Shown piece after piece: positions 4,471 through 43,951 of a DNA stretch of 53,198 nt. A program made the position numbers and the translations under genes. The notes under the pieces were generated by a model. That model searched no databases and was not told the DNA's origin. It saw nothing but the letters and a program-made list of their open reading frames with translations. Where the stretch lies: IMG/VR virus record IMGVR_UViG_3300027734_000099, positions 1 to 53,198 of that record. One strand, given 5' to 3'. Within the stretch, counting starts at the first letter, position 1. Each line of letters begins with the position of its first letter. The DNA comes from a virus (Duplodnaviria; Caudoviricetes).

Positions 4471-4761
4471 TTACTTTTCGTTTTCTTTCTTACCAGCTCT
4501 TCGTTTATTCTCTTTTGCGGTGTTCTTACCATGCTTCAATGCCCTTAGGTTTCCTTTAGAGTCATTGCTGTGGTTGTTGTCCTTGTGGTCAACATCCGTT
4601 CCTCTAGGTAGTTTTCCGTTTTTAGATTCGTAATCGGCACGAGCCTTGTTTTTCGATGTTGTAACCCACTTACCGTTTACTTTTTTCTTGTAAACGTAGA
4701 TAGGGCGACCTCCATTCGCTTTGGAACCTTTGTAGGGACCAAACTTTTTTTCTTCAGCCAT
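4471..4761 (-). CDS. HNH endonuclease
   Basis: DVDHKDNNHSNDSKGNLRAL...N HNH motif. Confidence 0.8.
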   Translation of the reverse strand: MAEEKKFGPYKGSKANGGRPIYVYKKKVNGKWVTTSKNKARADYESKNGKLPRGTDVDHKDNNHSNDSKGNLRALKHGKNTAKENKRRAGKKENEK

Positions 4762-5044
4762 TACTATCTCCCTTGCACGCACATGATGCGTTTAACTTAC
4801 CACAAGGACCGCAGGTAAAACGTTCGTGTGATTCTAAAGAACCTTGAGATTCAAGAGCATTCTCATACTTGTGCACTTCTTTGTAGCTATTAAACTTAAC
4901 GCCGTAGGTAGATGACGCATTAACAACTTGCGGCTCATTCCAAGGACGTGCAGCTTTAGAGGTACGGTCTGCTACAGACATGCGTACAACGCCGCCTCTA
5001 CCGTCCCTAGAACCGTAATGAAGGTCTTTCTTTGAGCGTCCCAT
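4754..5044 (-). CDS. Hypothetical protein, Cys-rich C-terminus
   Basis: CGPC...CAC; overlaps neighbours. Confidence 0.65.
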   Translation of the reverse strand: MGRSKKDLHYGSRDGRGGVVRMSVADRTSKAARPWNEPQVVNASSTYGVKFNSYKEVHKYENALESQGSLESHERFTCGPCGKLNASCACKGDSNG

Positions 5045-13014: not shown

Positions 13015-13300
13015 TTGAGATGGACAGAGGGCACACTGAATAGGCTGTCGATTGCACGGAGAACTGAATATCTATTGGGGTGTAACTATGAAGATAGATG
13101 GAAAGTGAAGAAGCGAAACAGAACGGACTTGGGTGCCTGAGGAATCCTGTGGCTGATAGTTACCTATCCAAGTAAGAGTGGAGTATGTAGGAAAAGACGC
13201 GACTGTGCTTACATACAGAATGAAACGACGCAAGAGGGACTGTGGCTGTGAGTCTCACGCAATTCCTTCAGTAATTCAGTGTGCCGTCTATCTATCTCAA
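13015..13300 (+). ncRNA. Candidate 286-nt multi-stem RNA with kissing-loop pseudoknot (RNA C)
   Basis: 27-position closing stem 13015-13041/13274-13300; internal stems; GTAACTAT/ATAGTTAC loop-loop pairing; no ORF. Confidence 0.6.
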
Positions 13301-13328
13301 CCGAGGTAGATGACAGAAGGGAGACGCA

Positions 13329-14520: not shown

Positions 14521-14654
14521 TGAGTTAAAGAAAGACCTGTTCATTGCCATTGAAGTTCTCAATGGTTATACAGAGCACGAAGCATTGCTAAATTGGCAGT
14601 GCACACAAGGGACATGCCAATGTCCATAACAACTACCCCCGAAAGGAGCCTTCA

Positions 14655-14912
14655 ATGGCAGGGAAAAAATCAGGCGGTTCAAGAAATGATAGCCGACCTA
14701 ATGGCAAAGCATGGAAAAAGAATCCTGGCCCAGATGGAGTCAAATCCAAGTTTGAGTCTAGACCAGGTCGTATTAACGGTCGCAGTGCAAGCAACCATGA
14801 GAAACGTGAAGCCTGGAAAGCAGCAGGCGGTCGTGTTGACCACCCAACTATCCCACACTGGCGCACTGGCAAAGTAAGAAAGGAGACAGTAAGTGTTTCC
14901 AATGACGCCTAG
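14655..14912 (+). CDS. Small basic protein
   Basis: GAAAGGAG SD; Lys/Arg/Gly-rich 85 aa. Confidence 0.7.
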   Translation: MAGKKSGGSRNDSRPNGKAWKKNPGPDGVKSKFESRPGRINGRSASNHEKREAWKAAGGRVDHPTIPHWRTGKVRKETVSVSNDA

Positions 14913-15090
14913 CCAATCATGGCTATTCCTGTTCCTATTGTTTTACTCAGTAGGAATTACAGCTCTTGCATACCTATGGCGTAGTAAGTATTATGACTTA
15001 CAGTCATACCGTATCTTTGAGCGTAAGCAACAAGGATACAAACGCACACAGTTAGACGAAATATACTCACAGTCATTTCTTAAAGACTAG
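14893..15090 (+). CDS. Small membrane protein
   Basis: One TM helix; AGAAAGGAG SD before GTG. Confidence 0.7.
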   Translation: MFPMTPSQSWLFLFLLFYSVGITALAYLWRSKYYDLQSYRIFERKQQGYKRTQLDEIYSQSFLKD

Positions 15091-15206
15091 TCTTACACGG
15101 AAGGCGGGAGTTCTATTGAACGAAAACCGGCCCTCGTAAGACCGCACCATCATGCGGTATACAAATGTGATGGAGCTTGTATAGATGTCACAGTCTATGC
15201 AAGCAC

Positions 15207-15433
15207 GTTGGGCAGGGGCATAATGAGTGGCCAAGAACTGAGGGGGAGCATTAGTAAGAAGTGCCTTCGTTTTGTAAGTGGCTAGGTATCCCATGGGGAA
15301 ACTACTCCTGGCTGTGCAACCACTCAAAACATCAAACACTAAATGCGTTTGCTGATGACAGCACACCTCGGGGTAACCCACGTGTGCCGAGGCTAGAGTC
15401 AGGATACCGTGGGAGGTGGCACCCCTGTCCAAC
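15207..15433 (+). ncRNA. Candidate 227-nt pseudoknotted RNA (RNA D)
   Basis: Closing stem GTTGGGCAGGGG/CCCCTGTCCAAC; nested TCCCATGG/CCGTGGGA and TCCTGGCT/AGTCAGGA; crossing TGAGTGG/CCACTCA. Confidence 0.55.
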
Positions 15434-15467
15434 ACAAACAAACCGCACAACAGCAGAAGGGATCAAC

Positions 15468-15758
15468 ATGTTCACAAAACGTAAGTTGATAAAGCGTATA
15501 GAGCGCATGATGGTTGAGCAAGAGCTCGAACTTCATGACCTCGATTCGCAACACAGCAGGGCATACCACAGTGGCATCATAGATGGTCTTGGTATGGCAC
15601 TCTATGAAGTGTCCCCTGTAGTAGCACGTCGTAATCCAATCAGTATCGTATGGTTTGATGAGGACTATGACGATAATCGTATGACAGAGCGTTATCGTGA
15701 AGAAGCATTTGATGCTATAAACGATAGTTCTATCTTCGAAACTGTTGAAGCCAAGTAA
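15468..15758 (+). CDS. Hypothetical protein
   Basis: AGAAGGG SD before ATG 15468. Confidence 0.75.
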   Translation: MFTKRKLIKRIERMMVEQELELHDLDSQHSRAYHSGIIDGLGMALYEVSPVVARRNPISIVWFDEDYDDNRMTERYREEAFDAINDSSIFETVEAK

Positions 15759-15760
15759 CA

Positions 15761-16471
15761 ATGGCAATCAGCAAATGGTCTGTTACAGACTATGACACAG
15801 CCAGCGTATATCTAAGTGAAGGTCGCAAGAAATGGACTCGCCCTTTGTATATGCGTGGGTTGCGCTTAACTAAACGCAGCAATGGAGACATTGCAATAAA
15901 TGACAATTGGTCTAACATGACCCCTGTTATTTATCATAAAGACGGAACTGTAACTATAGAAGCCCCAACAGTTGCTACCCACTTTGGTGGGACTTGGCAA
16001 ACGCTTAGGTCTCAAACTGTTCGTTACAACATCCGCCAGTTCTCTGGTATTAAAGACATCAAACAACAGAACTATCAATGTTATTTGACCTTTCAAGACG
16101 CAGAGGTAACCCCACCCAAAATACAAGGTTGTAGAACTTGTAAACAAACCGGAAGAATTGATAGCTGGTGTAATTCAAGTTACTGCAGCAACGAATGGCC
16201 TTGTGCAGAACACCCTGAAGCAGTGCAAGGAACCAGCGTATCAAGTTGGCATAAAGTTCCATGTGAACACGGCGTGTTGAATGGACACGAAGTTAAACGA
16301 GGACAACAATGCTACTCATGCAACGGGACACGCAAGCGTGACTACGGCAGCAGGTTAGAAACATTTAAGTGGGACGGTTCACCGCTCAAACTTAAAGATG
16401 GCAACATAGTTAAACGACCACCAACCGAACTAGAGAAAAGGATCGCAGCATATGTCCAACTACAAAGTTGA
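15761..16471 (+). CDS. Hypothetical protein with DnaJ-type CxxCxGxG Zn motifs
   Basis: CRTCKQTG, CYSCNGTR and extra Cys/His. Confidence 0.75.
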   Translation: MAISKWSVTDYDTASVYLSEGRKKWTRPLYMRGLRLTKRSNGDIAINDNWSNMTPVIYHKDGTVTIEAPTVATHFGGTWQTLRSQTVRYNIRQFSGIKDIKQQNYQCYLTFQDAEVTPPKIQGCRTCKQTGRIDSWCNSSYCSNEWPCAEHPEAVQGTSVSSWHKVPCEHGVLNGHEVKRGQQCYSCNGTRKRDYGSRLETFKWDGSPLKLKDGNIVKRPPTELEKRIAAYVQLQS

Positions 16472-17470: not shown

Positions 17471-17546
17471 GTTTCCTTAACAAATAGTTAGGGAATGTCA
17501 TAGCAATATGACAAACGATTCCATTACCAAAGAAGGGGTAAAAGCT

Positions 17547-18989
17547 ATGGATATCGCTGTATTCACGGAGTCATATGAACCAACTATGGGGGCAAATCGC
17601 CGTCAGGTTCTAATCACTCCACATGATGGAAATGTACGTATCTATTCACGTAACACAGACGGGACTAAAGGCCCTCACAATAAGTGGGAGGAAACAGACC
17701 TAGATAGTATTACTGGAGAGATATCTACAGGTGAGTCATTAACACGAACACCAGTTGCTGTGTACGTTACAGCAGCAGATGAGCGTGCAATGACTAGCAA
17801 AGGCTATTCCCCAGTCCTTGGCACCAAGGCATGTCAGGCACATACAAAAGCAACAGCTAACACTGACGCAACATCATTCGTAGATCGTATTTGCGAACTG
17901 TATGAAGCAGTAAGTAATGGTGATGATTCGCTTGAAGAATATGTAATTGACAATCGTCGTATGCCAGGCTCGCCTGTTCCAATGGGTGTTGTTCCAACAC
18001 AAACAATCCCCGCACCAACCATCACACCAGTCACAGAGACAGTTGTTCCTACAACCTCTGCACAACAAGGAGCAGTGATTAACGCAGCGCTTGCTTCAGT
18101 GCCACGCATTGAACTTGCTAAGCGTTATGTGCATAGAGATATCTGGTCCCGTCAGGACTTTGAAATCTTTGACCATGCACGTTCACAGAACATCAACGTC
18201 CTTATCTACGGCCCAACCGGCCCAGGTAAGACTACATCTGTTGAAGCATGGGCTGCTGAACGCGGCTTACGCATGGCAACAGTATCTGGTAACGCTTCAA
18301 TGGAGCCAAGCCAGATGACTGGTAAATATGTATCTGATGGCAATGGTTCATTTGCATGGATCGATGGCCCAGTTACAGACGTTGTTCGCAATGGTGGCGT
18401 CTTATTGCTCGATGAGGTTAACTTCATCAGCCCTAAGATTTACACAGTTCTATATTCATTGCTAGATGGTCGTCGTAACATTACGTTGCTAGACCACCAC
18501 GGTGAGACTATTGAGGCTAATAAAGACCTCACTATCTTTGCCACAATGAATCCAGATTACATTGGCACAACACCGCTCAACTTTGCATTCCGCAATCGCT
18601 TTGATATCCAAATCCCATGGGATTACGATGACAAAGTGGAGGCTAAGTTGGTTACATCTAAAGCCTTGCTAGTAGTTGCTAAACAACTTCGCGTTGAAGC
18701 AGGCAAAGGTCAGTATGAAACACCAATCTCAACTAACATGCTTCAGGAGTTTGTCAACTTTGTTGATGCTCTTGGTTATGAGTTTGCAGTTGAGAACTTT
18801 ATCGCTCACTTCTCTGCTGACGAAGCAGCAAGTGTGCGTCTTGTATTCCAGACACACGAGCACAATATCAAGACTGACTTTGGTATTGAGATTCCTATTG
18901 TCGTGGAAGAACAACCTGAAGGTAAATCACCTGAAGAACAACTTATGGAGTGGGCTGGACAATACGCTTCCCATAATGGCGTTATCTAA
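17547..18989 (+). CDS. MoxR/CbbQ/CobS-type AAA+ ATPase with N-terminal extension
   Basis: GPTGPGKT, LLLDEVN, ATMNP, A.RNRF. Confidence 0.9.
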   Translation: MDIAVFTESYEPTMGANRRQVLITPHDGNVRIYSRNTDGTKGPHNKWEETDLDSITGEISTGESLTRTPVAVYVTAADERAMTSKGYSPVLGTKACQAHTKATANTDATSFVDRICELYEAVSNGDDSLEEYVIDNRRMPGSPVPMGVVPTQTIPAPTITPVTETVVPTTSAQQGAVINAALASVPRIELAKRYVHRDIWSRQDFEIFDHARSQNINVLIYGPTGPGKTTSVEAWAAERGLRMATVSGNASMEPSQMTGKYVSDGNGSFAWIDGPVTDVVRNGGVLLLDEVNFISPKIYTVLYSLLDGRRNITLLDHHGETIEANKDLTIFATMNPDYIGTTPLNFAFRNRFDIQIPWDYDDKVEAKLVTSKALLVVAKQLRVEAGKGQYETPISTNMLQEFVNFVDALGYEFAVENFIAHFSADEAASVRLVFQTHEHNIKTDFGIEIPIVVEEQPEGKSPEEQLMEWAGQYASHNGVI

Positions 18990-19000
18990 GAAAGGTAACC

Positions 19001-20905
19001 ATGTATCAAGAACAGCTGGAAGATAACAGCTATTACGGAGAAGCCAGAGATGAGGATACACAAGAACGTGCTATCCGACTCAATGCTCTTTGTCGTGTCT
19101 ATGAACAGGCCGACAGAGTATTAACTGGCGACCCCGTGCTAGTGCACGTTATGCCTGATGGCCCCGCACCAGCGTGGTCTGATGGCGCAGCCATCTATAT
19201 CAATGTTAATGAAATTCAAGACATTGATTTAGAAACATTGACGCAGGTGAACGGCTTGAACTATCACGAGCTGTGTCATCACTTGTATACGCCTCGCAAA
19301 GGCACAACCTTAGTCCAATGGATTCAAGAGCAAAACTACTTCCAAGCGTTTAATATCTTGGAGGACCAACGCATCGAGACTCTATTCGTAGCAAGGTATC
19401 CATCAATATCACCATACCTAACAGCAACAGTTGCTCGTTGGCTTGGTGGTTCTGAAGACACAGGCGGTAACTACCTCTGCATTCGTGGTCGTCGTTATTT
19501 ACCTGTGGATATTAGGCAAGCATTCAGAGATGAATTTGCATTTCCTGAGCTAATTCCTAATATCATTGACATCGTAGACAAGTATCGTTTGCTGGCTTTC
19601 CCCAAAGATTATGAAACAGCAAAAGTATTAGTCGAACGACTCCACAAAGAAGTTCTAGTTCCAATGGGACTAGATGGACAATCATTCGGTGGCGGTCCTA
19701 ATGGATGTGGAGATCGTGCCCCAGTAGGTAAAGGTCGTCCTGAACCTGGCAAGGCACAAGAGAAAGATGCTGCACGTGCTTGCGGTATGGGAACTAAAGA
19801 ATCTACTTTTATTCCTAAACCTAAACAATCAGAGCCATCTAATAATGATGGCAATAGTGCAGGCAACACTCCAACACAAACAAACGACGGCTCCGGCCCA
19901 TACATACCACAAAGCACACAAGAGGCTCTAGATATTAGAGACCAACATGTGAACACACCAACATCACCAACAGCAGGAACTGGCCATGTAAAAAGCATGG
20001 GTGGTGTTCCTAACCATATCGATGACATGTTGAATGACGCTATCAATGAAGTGCTTGATCGTAAAGATGTTCAAGCCGACATTAAAGCCAAGCAACGTGT
20101 AATCGTGGGCGGTGATGGTAAACACGAAGATGTCACCAAGCGTGGCAAATTCAGCAGCACATCTGTGCCACAAGAAGCAATCATTAACTATCGTAAGTTC
20201 GCTAAAGAACTACAACGGTTGCGTGATGATTCAGAACCAGCATGGTCTAAAGAAACTCCATCTGGTCGTCTTAACGTGCAGCGTGTAATCAGAGGCTGTG
20301 AGATTGACCAAGCCTTTGATCGTTGGGAGGAAGGCGATGATGGTTGCGATATTGAAGCAGTCATCCTTGTCGATCGTTCCGGCTCAATGTCTAGTGGACA
20401 GAATGATAAGAAAGCATCTATTGCATGCTGGACTATCAAACGAGCACTAGAACACATTCAAGCACCGGTAACAGTCTATGCATTTGATGACCAAGCCGAA
20501 GTTGCTTACACCCGCACCGAACATGCTCACAAAACTGAGTATAAGTTCATCTATGGCAATGGTGGAACAGAACCGTATCCAGCATTGCTAGCCGCTGAAC
20601 AGCTTCTCATGTCTTCTCGTAAGAAGAACAAAATGCTGTTTATAGTTACTGATGGTGTGTTCAACACAAACAAAAATGACGAGCTAATTGAGCGTATCTC
20701 ACGCCGTGGGATTCTTACTGCAATGACCCTCATCATGAACGACAAAGAGTTCAAATACTATGTGGAAGATAGCAATCAACTAACCCTTGAAGGCTTAAAG
20801 CACAAGTCTGAAGTCTTTGGTCGAATCAGTAATGCCCAAGACCTGCTTCCCTTTGCACGACAGGTTGTTACATCTGCAATCCGCAAACGATCAAGAATAC
20901 GTTAG
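19001..20905 (+). CDS. vWA (MIDAS) protein with N-terminal HExxH metallopeptidase-like domain (CobT-like partner)
   Basis: HELCH, NILEDQRIE, DRSGSMS, GGT, VTDG. Confidence 0.88.
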   Translation: MYQEQLEDNSYYGEARDEDTQERAIRLNALCRVYEQADRVLTGDPVLVHVMPDGPAPAWSDGAAIYINVNEIQDIDLETLTQVNGLNYHELCHHLYTPRKGTTLVQWIQEQNYFQAFNILEDQRIETLFVARYPSISPYLTATVARWLGGSEDTGGNYLCIRGRRYLPVDIRQAFRDEFAFPELIPNIIDIVDKYRLLAFPKDYETAKVLVERLHKEVLVPMGLDGQSFGGGPNGCGDRAPVGKGRPEPGKAQEKDAARACGMGTKESTFIPKPKQSEPSNNDGNSAGNTPTQTNDGSGPYIPQSTQEALDIRDQHVNTPTSPTAGTGHVKSMGGVPNHIDDMLNDAINEVLDRKDVQADIKAKQRVIVGGDGKHEDVTKRGKFSSTSVPQEAIINYRKFAKELQRLRDDSEPAWSKETPSGRLNVQRVIRGCEIDQAFDRWEEGDDGCDIEAVILVDRSGSMSSGQNDKKASIACWTIKRALEHIQAPVTVYAFDDQAEVAYTRTEHAHKTEYKFIYGNGGTEPYPALLAAEQLLMSSRKKNKMLFIVTDGVFNTNKNDELIERISRRGILTAMTLIMNDKEFKYYVEDSNQLTLEGLKHKSEVFGRISNAQDLLPFARQVVTSAIRKRSRIR

Positions 20906-23955: not shown

Positions 23956-25986
23956 TTAATTATTATCTTTAATCAGTTTAACTTCACAGGCATCTGTGGT
24001 GCAGTACGCCTCCCCAACAGCATCTGCGGCCATACCTGCGTACACACCGGCAAAGTCAATTGGGAACAGTTTCATGCGAGCCTCTTCATACTCACTCTCA
24101 GTGATCTGAGTGTATGGCATCTGTGGGTATACAGTGTTACCCATAGGCAAGAACGAAACCGTCTTCAGCTGACCATCATGCATGTGAAGGATAGACGCAA
24201 TAGAGTCTGCTTCCTTCTCAGGGTCAAAGGTCACAGTTACAGATACAGAGTTATCTGACCAATAGCGTTGCGTTACAACGGCAAGCGCTACCTTTTCATG
24301 TACAGATACTTCTTTCTCAGCACGTTTTGCACTGGTTTGGATAGGGAAGAACACGACCGAAGTTGTATCTGGTGATTCAGATGCTGGCTCTACCTGATAG
24401 TTTGCCATTCTGAATAATGGGAGCATTGGGTCAGAGTTAGCAAAACGAATAGCTCTATTAAAGAACTTACCTCCGGATGCCCAGTGAACTCCAGGAGACT
24501 CACCGGCAAGAATGGATACGGTGCCAGATGGCTTGACTGTGGTCATCTTGATTGACTGACGAATACCCAACCATTCAGAATACGACTCGTCGTATCCCTT
24601 GACTACAGCGTAGCCCTCATTGAGCCAGTCACGGAGAATAGTCCAGCCATTGTTGTCAGCAAAGTTAGCAATACCAGAAATTGAGGTTCCGATACGGCGG
24701 TTACGTTGCATGATTGCGTTAGTTTCTTCCCAGTGAGTAGGGAGAAGTGTCACAGTCTTGGCGTATAAGTAGGCAAACTTTAGGGTGCGCTTGAAGTCCT
24801 CTAACGAGTCGTGCCTATTCAAGTAAGTCTCTACCAATGTACACATTTCAAAAGATTCTAGGCTTTGCTCAGCGCATGGGTTATACCCAGCAACACGCCA
24901 ATCTTTATTGTTAGGTGGATCAATCAAACGACCGTATTTGCGTGAAACATCCATCCAGACCACTCCTGGCTCGCCGTTGCGAACAATGCCATCAATGATC
25001 TTAGAGAAATCAGAACCTACTTTTGCCTCAACAGAGTTGTTAGACATCCAAGCCCATCCCGGATTCTTATGATCATAAGAGTTGCGCTCAGGATAAACTT
25101 CAGCATTCTTTAAGTTCAAAAAGTCCTCATCATCAATTCTACCGATGAGTAGCTCAGCTGACCTACGTACGTTTCCAGATACAACACAAACCCCGATTAG
25201 GTTGCCAATATCAGCAATGTCCTTACGGGTTAGTTTTTCTCCTGCACGTCCCTTAAAAATTCTATGAATATAGTTGTGTAGTCGTTCTAGCGGTTCGTGT
25301 CCTGCTGCGGTTCCGCCAAACGTTTTGATTGGAGTGCCTGCTGGACGGATTTCTTTGTAATCAAATACTGGAGCCTTGCTATCTGGCTTGAGGTAAGCAT
25401 TGATGACGGACGTGACGGATTCGACCCATCCTTCTCGGGTGTCTGGTACAACATATGTGTCTCCTTGATTTGGTTCATAGATAGTGAAGTCCTTGTCAGC
25501 CCCCTTATCGTCGAACCCTACTCCGACACCTAACATGGATGCTTCCATTAAGAAAGCAAATGGTTTTGCTGGGTTGAGCTTCGTCATCTCAGTTGTAGAA
25601 ACGAAAGCACAATTCTGTAGTGCGGCAGAGTTCCTCTGCTCATTAACAATTGGAGTTCCCATTACCCATAGTCCGCGTCCTGGCGGTGTCCACTTCAATT
25701 GGAACAACCGGTCAAATGCTTCTTTGGCTGATGATGCAGCTTTAGCATCTGACCAAGGTAAGCGTTGGGATTTAGCGTGGTCTTTTTGAAGGGAATACAT
25801 TCCGTTGATTACGCGTTCGCAAACTTCAACCCAAGTTTCTTTAGTACCGTCCTCTTTAAGACGAGAGTATGTTCGCAAGAAAGTAATTTCTCCGACACTA
25901 TTTCCCGCTGCGTCAGAATACCCCCAAGGAACAGTCTTACCTTTGTATGAGTTGACGAAATCCTCGGCTAATTTAAAAGAAAACAA
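23956..25986 (-). CDS. nrdJ: Class II (B12-dependent, RTPR-type) ribonucleotide reductase
   Basis: PPGRGLW, ALQNC, GNVRRSA, NPCAEQ, TVKPSGT, C-terminal CTTDAC; no small subunit nearby. Confidence 0.92.
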   Translation of the reverse strand: MFSFKLAEDFVNSYKGKTVPWGYSDAAGNSVGEITFLRTYSRLKEDGTKETWVEVCERVINGMYSLQKDHAKSQRLPWSDAKAASSAKEAFDRLFQLKWTPPGRGLWVMGTPIVNEQRNSAALQNCAFVSTTEMTKLNPAKPFAFLMEASMLGVGVGFDDKGADKDFTIYEPNQGDTYVVPDTREGWVESVTSVINAYLKPDSKAPVFDYKEIRPAGTPIKTFGGTAAGHEPLERLHNYIHRIFKGRAGEKLTRKDIADIGNLIGVCVVSGNVRRSAELLIGRIDDEDFLNLKNAEVYPERNSYDHKNPGWAWMSNNSVEAKVGSDFSKIIDGIVRNGEPGVVWMDVSRKYGRLIDPPNNKDWRVAGYNPCAEQSLESFEMCTLVETYLNRHDSLEDFKRTLKFAYLYAKTVTLLPTHWEETNAIMQRNRRIGTSISGIANFADNNGWTILRDWLNEGYAVVKGYDESYSEWLGIRQSIKMTTVKPSGTVSILAGESPGVHWASGGKFFNRAIRFANSDPMLPLFRMANYQVEPASESPDTTSVVFFPIQTSAKRAEKEVSVHEKVALAVVTQRYWSDNSVSVTVTFDPEKEADSIASILHMHDGQLKTVSFLPMGNTVYPQMPYTQITESEYEEARMKLFPIDFAGVYAGMAADAVGEAYCTTDACEVKLIKDNN

Positions 25987-42758: not shown

Positions 42759-43644
42759 CAATACTCTCCTTATAAGGCTCACACCGTTTACATCCGGCTA
42801 CGGGGTCAATATTACACACAGGTGGTCGGTTGTTGTCAACTGCCCAAGCAATGTCCAAGGCTTGATCAAACAGCTCCTTGGTAAACTCTGGGTTGTATTT
42901 GACAGTAAACTCTTTATAATCTTGGTTAGCTTTAAGCTCATAGATAAATACGATCTCTTCTGGTGCAGACGGAAGATCTCCGTTCTCAACCATTAGATGA
43001 GTTAAGTGCAGGTAAACCTGACCCTGTAATTGATGGGCACGAAACGGCGCACGAATATTGCGCCAAGCTTTTTCTAAATCACCATCAGACTGAGCTAACA
43101 AAGCCGGAGCCTCAAAGCGAAGTGTTCCAGCACCAATAGACTTAATCTCAATAAGGCAGTCTTCTCCCAATGTTTTAACCCAACCATCTGAGTGACCACC
43201 AATCTTGTGCTTGTCACTCCACAGAGGAACTTCACGGTATTCAAAAACCCCACACTCTGGGTCATCAAAATTTAAATCAGAAGCAAGTTCCCAATCTGAA
43301 GGTCCACACTCCGAGCACTCCCACTTACCGTAAAGCACGCCCATTTCTGTAAGCCACTTCTGCCACTTAGCGTGGATCGTGTGCCCCTCATCAAAGATAG
43401 ATTGAAGACGAAGAGTAGGCTTTTCACGCACCTCTTTGTAGTTACCTTTAATTGCATGGTACTGGGCAAGATGACACCACTCAGGTTTAATCATGTCAGA
43501 TGGGTGAATAATATCCATGCGACGATTATCAAAAGGCTTAGATAACAAGTGGCGCTCAATAGCGCCCATTAAACGAGTATCTCGTTTAGTTGCGTCTAAG
43601 AATGCTTTTAAAGAAATCGCCTTAGGCTTGCCCGTATTTGCCAT
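42751..43644 (-). CDS. Cas4/RecB-like exonuclease
   Basis: G..IH, GHSDG, IEIKS, Q.QVY, terminal CKRC. Confidence 0.8.
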   Translation of the reverse strand: MANTGKPKAISLKAFLDATKRDTRLMGAIERHLLSKPFDNRRMDIIHPSDMIKPEWCHLAQYHAIKGNYKEVREKPTLRLQSIFDEGHTIHAKWQKWLTEMGVLYGKWECSECGPSDWELASDLNFDDPECGVFEYREVPLWSDKHKIGGHSDGWVKTLGEDCLIEIKSIGAGTLRFEAPALLAQSDGDLEKAWRNIRAPFRAHQLQGQVYLHLTHLMVENGDLPSAPEEIVFIYELKANQDYKEFTVKYNPEFTKELFDQALDIAWAVDNNRPPVCNIDPVAGCKRCEPYKESIDA

Positions 43645-43951
43645 CCTGGTCTATCCATTCTTCTAGTGTTAAACCTTGTTTTTCATACTTACGCTTTGCT
43701 GCATTTCTTTCTCTGTGTGACATGCCACCAAAGATTCCATGCAACTCATCGTTTATGATAGCTTCTTTAAGACATTCTTTGCGAACTGGACAAGCTGGTC
43801 GCCCATCCTTTCCCCAACAGATTGCTTTAGCTTTATCTGCTATCGGTTTGTATAAAGCTTTATCTCTTGGTGGGAAAAATATCTCTGTATCTTCCCCTCG
43901 GCATTTAGCCCTGTATCTCCAAGCCCATGTAGGCTCGTCGTCATATTCCAT
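43622..43951 (-). CDS. whiB: WhiB family transcription factor
   Basis: W..RAKC, FFP, AKAIC, CPV..EC, GIFGG...ER. Confidence 0.92.
   Translation of the reverse strand: MEYDDEPTWAWRYRAKCRGEDTEIFFPPRDKALYKPIADKAKAICWGKDGRPACPVRKECLKEAIINDELHGIFGGMSHRERNAAKRKYEKQGLTLEEWIDQDGKYGQA

Follow-up and report, generated by a model that had tools for sequence, protein, structure and literature searches.

The described RNAs that most resemble the element analyzed here are the large ornate RNAs GOLLD, ROOL, HEARO and OLE, some of which are phage-borne, the aptamers of riboswitches and other structured 5' leaders, and the stable RNAs that lie beside tRNA genes and are freed by tRNA-processing enzymes, such as the RNAs of the phage T4 tRNA cluster or those with 3'-end formation of the MALAT1/mascRNA type. 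We analyzed the IMG/VR virus record IMGVR_UViG_3300027734_000099 (Duplodnaviria; Caudoviricetes), whose 53,198 bases are called the window below. In this stretch, a gene-free gap of 377 nucleotides (nt) at 15091-15467, within a block of small plus-strand genes, separates an open reading frame (ORF) of 62 amino acids (aa) that ends at 15090 from a 96-aa ORF with its ATG at 15468. The gap is non-coding, consists of three hairpins, H1-H3, followed by a domain of ~227 nt closed by the stem P1, and almost certainly forms a conserved RNA structure on the plus strand. Like GOLLD, ROOL, HEARO and OLE, this is a complex, covarying, phage-associated RNA, but it is smaller (about 230 nt) and has no Rfam similarity. 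With riboswitch aptamers and structured leaders it shares a covarying multi-helix junction with invariant joining strands and a variable periphery, a position 11-33 nt before a start codon, and the presence of one gene family, WhiB, downstream in 17 of 33 cases; it differs from them in that neither a terminator nor a helix sequestering the Shine-Dalgarno (SD) sequence was found in the window RNA, that the RNA is kept before unrelated genes, and that whiB occurs without it. The likeness to the T4 tRNA-cluster and mascRNA type lies in a tRNA-like acceptor/T-arm element that abuts the 5' side of P1 in distant relatives, whereas the window has H3 in this place and ARAGORN calls no tRNA there.

Orphan RNAs from phages and metagenomes (Weinberg-type surveys; PMC10690425) are similarly known from uncultured sequence only, backed by covariation and located upstream of genes; the window RNA differs in that it matches none of the 4227 families of Rfam 15. 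One IMG/VR survey reports 10,006 candidate structured RNAs, which are left unnamed there (PMC10690425), and the RNA described here may already be among these candidates. It is new to Rfam 15 and to GenBank phages, and constitutes a new family, found in uncultured freshwater phages with whiB genes (actinophages), within the known kind of structured phage leaders or non-coding RNAs (ncRNAs), not a new kind of system.

Folding of the gap as a single sequence gave a z-score of -3.43 on the plus strand, with none of 100 shuffles as good, and of -2.21 on the minus strand, with 5 of 100 as good; for the 233-nt core alone, the z-score was -2.49 (2 of 200 shuffles as good). Such values are only suggestive, so the case for the structure rests on comparative data. 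We recruited 36 loci of relatives (loci carry L numbers) via the CobS-like protein from viral contigs of roughly 100 kb; nhmmer detected the gap sequence in 14 of these, and a profile brought two more. A first alignment of 10 sequences was made with MAFFT only, without any fitting to structure. In this alignment, the eight nested helices described below (42 pairs) had 95.7% of cells paired, compared with 88.9±0.8% in shuffles, and double changes in 16 of the 42 pairs, compared with 7.5±1.6; neither value was attained by any of 500 shuffles, and sliding the 3' partners by 1-3 columns lowered the pairing to 39-49%. The covariance model R1 was built from this alignment, and the most conserved 24-nt pattern was used to scan viral, genome and metagenome collections, which yielded 17 full-length R1 matches in 58 sources and then 30 in 80 further sources, counts that include some contigs present in two collections. 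From these searches, 35 sources were chosen and their 35 distinct sequences aligned to R1. This second alignment, A7, leans towards the model because it was fitted to it, which the MAFFT alignment does not. In A7, 97.0% of the cells in the eight helices are paired and 27 of the 42 pairs show compensatory changes, compared with 17.9±1.9 in shuffles (attained by none of 500) and 6-10 in the slid controls. Many sequences have G·U at paired positions (at three pairs, for instance, 14, 12 and 16 of the 35); read from the other strand these would be A·C, which identifies the plus strand as the one that folds. The initial annotation, made from the sequence of the window alone, is borne out in its view of the gap as a complex conserved non-coding RNA rather than as part of the frame of the downstream ORF.

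Searches of other kinds recovered little. With blastn, a 3-kb query found no close relatives among GenBank phages, and 298 nt gave a single 31-nt match (E=1), which we take as chance; a 236-aa neighbor used as a probe had no match in the viral contigs, where an exact 32-mer of the 3' portion of the core (the "compact unit" of the initial annotation) also had none. In the genome-contig collection, the module pattern matched five times, compared with ~9 matches expected by chance according to our own arithmetic, and only one of these contigs, L076, carries a full-length RNA (78 bits), the other four having no model match. L076 is a 15-kb contig binned in a Candidatus Nanopelagicaceae metagenome-assembled genome, in which the RNA is followed by a gene for a 142-aa WhiB; it is either a hint at the host or a phage contig binned together with its host.

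In the core of the RNA, three arms meet in a nested three-way junction: P1; P2, bearing P3 together with the invariant GGUAUCCCAUGGGGAAACUACUCC module; and P4, bearing P5 and a GNRA hairpin. P1, correctly recognized in the initial annotation as the closing stem, pairs 15207-15218 with 15422-15433 and shows changes on both sides in 7 of its 10 modeled pairs in A7, with variants that include GGGG/CCCC, GAGG/CCUC, GAAG/CUUC and GAGAC/GUCUC. The joining strand J1/2, CAUAA (15219-15223), leads into P2, in which UGAGUGG (15224-15230) pairs with CCACUCA (15320-15326); GUG/CAC is replaced by UUA/UAA in relatives, and four of the seven pairs show double changes. Within P2, a variable hairpin, P2a (15240-15270), is seen in the alignments and in the minimum-free-energy fold; it is optional, being missing from L027, L003, L023 and L031. 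P3 and the invariant module span 15281-15312, with the stem formed by 15281-15286 and 15307-15312, an internal loop UAU / AAACUACU, and the hairpin P3a, UCCC-AUG-GGGA (15289-15299); double changes occur in three of five P3 pairs and in all four P3a pairs. The 3' strand of P2 is followed by J2/4, AAA (together 15320-15329). The 5' strands of P4 (CAUC) and P4b (CAC) lie within 15330-15339 and pair with 15415-15418 and 15409-15411, respectively, in the segment GUG ... GGUG (15409-15418); one pair of this region, 143/366 in A7, is AU in 13 sequences, CG in 11, UG in 5, UA in 3 and GC in 2. P5 (15361-15387) is formed by GCACAC/GUGUGC around a GGG-GUAA-CCC hairpin (15370-15379); it becomes GCGUUGC/GCAACGC in L010 and L011 and shows double changes in four of six pairs, and the GNRA loop in relatives is GUAA, GCAA or GAAA.

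Conservation of at least 94% over the 35 sequences was observed for the CAG/CUG center of P1, for AUAAU (15220-15224), for the nearly invariant UCAAAAC at the end of P2 and J2/4, and for the P3 module, GGUAUC.cAUGg.GA.A.UA.UCC. The 3' domain of P4 and P5 is swapped for other structures in members of the L029, L129, L032, L037, L076 and L090 types. Downstream of P1, within 15434-15467, an unpaired CA-rich tail (ACACAAACAAACC) precedes an SD-like GAAGGGA (15457-15463) and the ATG of the 96-aa ORF; conservation of this tail extends over the window group and the L031-type relatives.

All sequence strings quoted in the initial annotation occur where it placed them, as we found on recomputing the pairings, and the revision concerns the two pseudoknots that it proposed. 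The first of these was to be built on two long-range stems, and their pairs are not kept across homologues, neither stem exceeding its shuffles. For TCCCATGG/CCGTGGGA (15289/15407), 73.8% of cells are paired, a value attained by 364 of 500 shuffles, with two of the pairs disrupted in 8 of 10 sequences; for TCCTGGCT/AGTCAGGA (15306/15397), 80.3% are paired, with no compensatory change and one pair broken in 9 of 10, and this stem competes with the covarying helix P3. Given that these two stems are not conserved, the UGAGUGG/CCACUCA helix, which had been described as crossing them, is real and covaries, but as the nested P2. In the second proposed knot, the GCACAC/GUGUGC stem (15361-15366/15382-15387) and the GNRA hairpin likewise hold, being conserved or covarying as P5, whereas the crossing CCTCGG/CCGAGG helix is present but lacks such support: it is 96.4% paired, invariant and devoid of covariation, is broken in L023 and deleted in L031, and clashes sterically with the covarying P5. 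Because some of its bases belong to P5 and to the GNRA hairpin as well, and because zero loop nt would be left for an H-type knot, the pairings are alternatives at best. We also considered a knot of our own, GGUAUCC (15285-15291) with GGAUACC (15402-15408), which is fully paired in all 10 sequences but invariant, overlaps the covarying P3 and P3a, and lacks its partner in L029-type relatives and in L032. Since these candidates are invariant and overlap covarying helices, we claim no pseudoknot.

The three hairpins upstream of P1, also noted in the initial annotation, are conserved with compensatory changes (H1-H3 together, double changes in 6 of 26 pairs over seven sequences). H1 (15092-15140, plus strand) lies directly 3' of the stop codon of the 62-aa ORF; its outer stem, CUUAC/GUAAG, is kept in all seven sequences according to RNAalifold, and its inner stem-loop varies in sequence and retains the hairpin form. 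H2 (15141-15158; ACCGCA...UGCGGU) has six pairs, of which the closing one covaries (AU in five sequences, UA in one, GC in one). H3 (15175-15204) is a 12-bp stem with a conserved loop region, GAUGUCAMAGU, compensatory changes in 4-5 pairs and several G·U pairs, and is followed by a conserved ACG(U)U linker (15205-15208). H3 is found without the core in L007, L019 and L022, and may be a signal in its own right. In L019 (3500-3545) and L022 (3410-3445), the core-less H3-type hairpin has the same conserved loop (GAUGUCAAAGU) and lies directly before a homologue of the 96-aa ORF.

In distant relatives, a tRNA-like element takes the place of H3 directly 5' of P1 (L037, 4763-4836; L032, about 4538-4616; L031, about 4707-4806; also upstream of P1 in L129 and L109). 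Its 7-bp acceptor-like stem covaries (GCCUGUG/CACAGGC, GCCUGUA/UGCAGGC, GUGCAUA/UAUGCAC, GCCAACG/UGUUGGC), and the element further contains the conserved string GAAGGAC, a hairpin that varies and a T-arm-like one with the loop UGCAAAU, UUCAAUU or UUCGAUU; about one unpaired base and CG(U)U then lead to P1. ARAGORN, including runs at a lowered threshold, identified no tRNA at this element in the relatives, its four calls there being on the opposite strand, and on L037 the Rfam tRNA-Sec model scored 13.8 bits, with a cut-off of 47.

An ORF that begins with ATG and lies on the strand of the RNA opens 11-33 nt past the model match in 33 of the 35 homologues, the two exceptions being L118, which has no downstream DNA, and L123, a partial match; an SD-like motif, defined by our own regular expression, precedes 28 of these 33 ORFs. 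The ORF is WhiB-like in 17 cases, of the 96-aa type in 10 (window included) and a 50-52-aa ORF in six. All seven RNA-adjacent ORFs tested matched PF02467 (E from 4e-22 to 5e-12; 46.8-78.9 bits with a cut-off of 23.6), and the remaining WhiB-like assignments were made by blastp or by a shared N-terminus. The WhiB-linked members include the most divergent types (L032, L037, L129), which represent the deepest splits of the family and in which tblastn loses the other neighbors of the window. In L002, the gene order is RNA, whiB and 96-aa homologue, and in the lineage of the window whiB appears to have been lost, so that the same leader now stands before the 96-aa ORF at 15468. L007 (3363-3500) has a natural core-less leader, which retains H1-H3 as well as the ACG linker and CA-rich tail and is followed by whiB. 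The absence from L007 of exactly the P1-closed core indicates that this core is a discrete module inside a whiB leader. An ORF of 107 aa that lies 3' of the RNA in L010 (3582-3905) weakly matches the AcrF31 Pfam family (E 0.0027; 18.1 bits with a cut-off of 27), probably by chance.

The RNA is an accessory element. Among the 15 relatives rated 100% complete by CheckV (G numbers), eight have exactly one full-length copy, and one of these carriers, G010, has an extra weak match (12.6 bits, E 0.08). G006-G008, like the window, carry the RNA without a whiB gene in its slot. Phyletic profiling for a protein partner over these 15 genomes (7014 ORFs of at least 45 aa; 67 core clusters) yielded no cluster present in all eight carriers and none of the seven non-carriers; the best, with eight and one, respectively, comprises ORFs of 47-81 aa. 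Besides the optional copy at the RNA slot, tblastn identified at least two whiB-like genes elsewhere in each of the 15 complete relatives.

Between 15091 and 15467 neither a promoter-like site nor a plus-strand terminator-like site was found. Six RNA-library runs contain 0.17-0.20 of the sampled words of 14600-16000, and contigs of four of these cover 14600-14961, in the upstream gene; one contig also covers 15130-15211, extending from the upstream gene across H2 and H3 to P1-P2 of a close relative. The remainder, 15212-16000, is uncovered, a gap that is uninformative given that these are contigs. This is a weak hint that the RNA is transcribed together with the upstream genes, and DNA carry-over is possible.

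The R1 searches also uncovered what appears, from its sequence features, to be a free-standing RNA gene. In 20 viral-contig and 43 metagenome sources, R1 matched only model positions 56-81, that is, the 26-nt P3 module (a near-equivalent span in a few rows), which is the sole part of the model matched in this sister family (viral-contig loci L038, L039, L041, L043, L044, L046, L048, L051, L053-L055, L060, L061, L063, L064, L066-L069 and L071). The sister unit of ~290 nt has a TGnTATAAT-type promoter-like sequence directly upstream and ends in a 12-15-bp GC-rich terminator-like hairpin followed by a U-rich tail. In 12 sister sequences (RNAalifold, pair counts), 94.1% of cells are paired and 18 of 50 pairs show double changes, compared with 8.2±2.1 in shuffles (0 of 500), and the terminator-like stem belongs to the covarying helices. 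In L053, a simple scanner called promoter-like sites before and after the sister unit; the terminator was not called because its loop exceeds the limit of the scanner. The sister family shares with the window RNA the identical module and the same three-way layout of P1, P2 (module and GNRA-type hairpin) and P4, and differs in its own promoter-like site and terminator-like hairpin, its joining strands and its 3' domain. The first downstream ORFs have at least 10 different N-termini in the 20 viral-contig loci, in none of which whiB was found, and the family has no Rfam or GenBank phage match. The sister contigs are up to 130 kb long; often they share one upstream gene (C-terminus ...KRPIEDFEAVFITEWE), whereas the downstream genes are diverse.

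The leading interpretation, which we put forward tentatively and from sequence comparison, is that the P1-closed domain may be a cis-acting element of the 5' leader of a gene in an early operon. In its ancestral and commonest setting, it would precede the start codon of a gene for a phage WhiB-like transcription factor by 11-33 nt; the domain would be transcribed along with the upstream genes and fold as an independent unit, and the invariant junction and P3 module would bind a ligand or factor, thereby setting the translation of the next ORF or the stability of the mRNA. We favor a cis-acting leader because of the ancient, tight linkage to the whiB start codon, the lack of a promoter or terminator of its own, and the optional insertion into a whiB leader. 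Of the two functions suggested in the initial annotation, riboswitch-like behavior is still a live reading since nearly all homologues of the RNA are immediately followed by an ORF. Several observations weigh against a cis-acting leader. Three complete relatives (G001, G002 and G005) have whiB in the slot without the RNA, and 7 of the 15 complete relatives have no RNA copy at E<=0.1; the covarying structure is kept in the 16 of 33 homologues in which the next gene is not whiB (10 with the 96-aa ORF and six with the 50-52-aa ORF); any element in a tightly packed phage operon adjoins the next start codon; the sister family looks free-standing, with its promoter-like site, covarying terminator-like stem and at least 10 types of downstream ORF; the RNA-library evidence consists of contigs only, from which the strand, level and ends of transcripts cannot be read; and an expression platform was not found, the SD lying 20-30 nt beyond P1. 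Sequestration of the SD by the 3' strand of P1, checked by eye only, shows no covariation, and, because the SD region is constant while P1 varies, this possibility was dropped.

Nearly as likely, the P1-closed domain could be a stable, trans-acting ncRNA that is cut from the early polycistronic transcript. Its 5' end would be set by H3 or, in distant relatives, by the tRNA-like element as recognized by tRNA-processing enzymes, and the released RNA would bind a host or phage factor via the invariant P3 module, acting as a decoy or scaffold. This possibility ranks so high because the sister family looks free-standing, with apparent promoter and terminator of its own and unrelated downstream genes, because the RNA survives before unrelated genes, and because a hairpin or tRNA-like element abuts its 5' end. 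The persistence of selection for structure beside three types of downstream gene, the accessory distribution of the RNA (8 of 15 complete relatives), and the covarying 7-bp acceptor-like stem with a T-arm-like hairpin directly 5' of P1 are all compatible with a trans-acting RNA, although the score of the latter element with tRNA-type Rfam models is weak. However, the window family has no 3'-end-forming signal, no phage protein co-occurs with the RNA over the 15 genomes, the homology of the two families rests on the 26-nt module and the similar layout, and the tight, ancient linkage to the whiB start codon is the behavior of a leader.

Processive antitermination, in which the RNA would act in cis on RNA polymerase to allow early read-through of downstream terminators, is quite improbable. 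The put RNAs of phage HK022 function in this manner, and the location of the sister RNA between a promoter-like site and an intrinsic-terminator-like hairpin, as well as that of the window family at the head of a long plus-strand block of early genes, would fit such an activity. However, there is no similarity to catalogued antiterminator RNAs, no promoter lies directly upstream of the window family, and the RNA is far larger than the put elements, which are roughly 70 nt long.

A self-cleaving ribozyme or RNA-processing element, the other function suggested in the initial annotation, is highly improbable. The three-way junction with highly conserved joining strands and the intergenic position in a polycistronic transcript might be expected of such an element. 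However, where the hammerhead has its catalytic core (CUGAUGA / GAAA), between the helices of the junction, the present RNA has CAUAA(UGA) and AAA, without the G residues of that core; nothing else indicates cleavage, no conserved feature of a cleavage site was identified, and no Rfam model of a small self-cleaving ribozyme, hammerhead included, matched 14800-15700 at E<=10. The comparison with Rfam 15, a check that the initial annotation had proposed, assigned the RNA to no family: the whole window had no match at the gathering threshold, the two weak matches in 14800-15700 at E<=10 both fall outside 15091-15467, and the L037 homologue of the RNA matched no family either. These scans agree with the annotation that motifs of group I introns and RNase P are absent, there being no covariance-model match. 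ARAGORN found no tRNA or tmRNA in the window, and a literature text search with four 14-letter strings of the RNA found no paper.

It is scarcely credible that the gap is a DNA-level element (an operator, origin or packaging signal) or a spacer with chance stems: the inverted repeat of H3 does occur without the core, but compensatory changes in 27 of 42 pairs are far above the controls, and the many G·U pairs could not form as matched pairs on the other strand or in cruciforms of duplex DNA. Protein coding, by an N-terminal extension of the 96-aa ORF (15261-15467) or by a 125-aa minus-strand ORF (15073-15450), both of which are open in the window, can virtually be dismissed: no ORF is common to the homologues on either strand, the extension frame closes just before the ATG in L004 and L003, the minus-strand ORF falls into pieces of 47-48 aa in L002 and is different in other relatives, Pfam searches with both frames gave no match, the gap tolerates indels of 1-40 nt among relatives, and the substitutions track base pairs, not codons. 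Judged by the refuting observation that the initial annotation had named, conservation of the 15261-15467 extension as protein, the comparison favors RNA. A leader peptide starting at the AUG of the module was also considered and rejected, given that stops are not conserved and codon 2 is G, E or W.

Returning to a cis-acting leader, a more far-reaching version, which we regard as rather unlikely, is that the P1-closed domain could be the aptamer of a new class of riboswitch or factor-sensing leader with which phages of abundant freshwater Actinobacteria time or tune an Fe-S WhiB-like regulator of host takeover; the 26-nt module would then be a transferable recognition element, put to use again in an RNA gene of phages that stands alone. 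Phages of acI/Nanopelagicales-type Actinobacteria are reported to be among the commonest lake viruses, with whiB as their marker gene (PMC10914622, PMC10202952). An uncatalogued fold of ~230 nt that is tied to phage whiB in many lineages, together with a sister RNA, provides a testable handle on the control or supplementation of host takeover. Orphan RNAs of medium size are few, and it is usually among them that new classes of riboswitches, ribozymes or ribonucleoproteins are discovered; the two well-supported alignments (35 distinct sequences for the first family and 12 for the sister) enlarge this group. If the RNA merely stabilizes the leader, it would be a solid but ordinary new RNA family.

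The record has a CheckV completeness estimate of 54%, and the DNA runs that contain the window stretch carry freshwater or lake-water labels. A WhiB-family gene lies on the minus strand at 43622-43951 (PF02467, 65.4 bits), and WhiB is described in the literature as a marker of phages of Actinobacteria (PMC10914622). The 96-aa ORF that follows the RNA had no match in Pfam and PHROG searches. The window further codes for a T4-type large terminase, a family A DNA polymerase and an SNF2 helicase. About 2 kb upstream of the gap, a second conserved non-coding stretch is located on the plus strand (13030-13325), where the only ORFs are of 41-43 aa; it has no Rfam match and probably corresponds to the first large RNA of the initial annotation. 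Its homologues are present in many relatives, including G002 and G003, which lack the RNA studied here. A gap of ~600 nt at the RNA slot in L019 and L022, considered as a third family, was rejected as such because it is a homologue of this stretch (nhmmer E 1.7e-20 for the L019 gap). Finally, a CobS-like AAA_5 ATPase (17508-18989) followed by a CobT-like VWA protein (the pair within 17508-20905) and a B12-dependent (class II) ribonucleotide reductase (23956-25986) are encoded on this one phage fragment.

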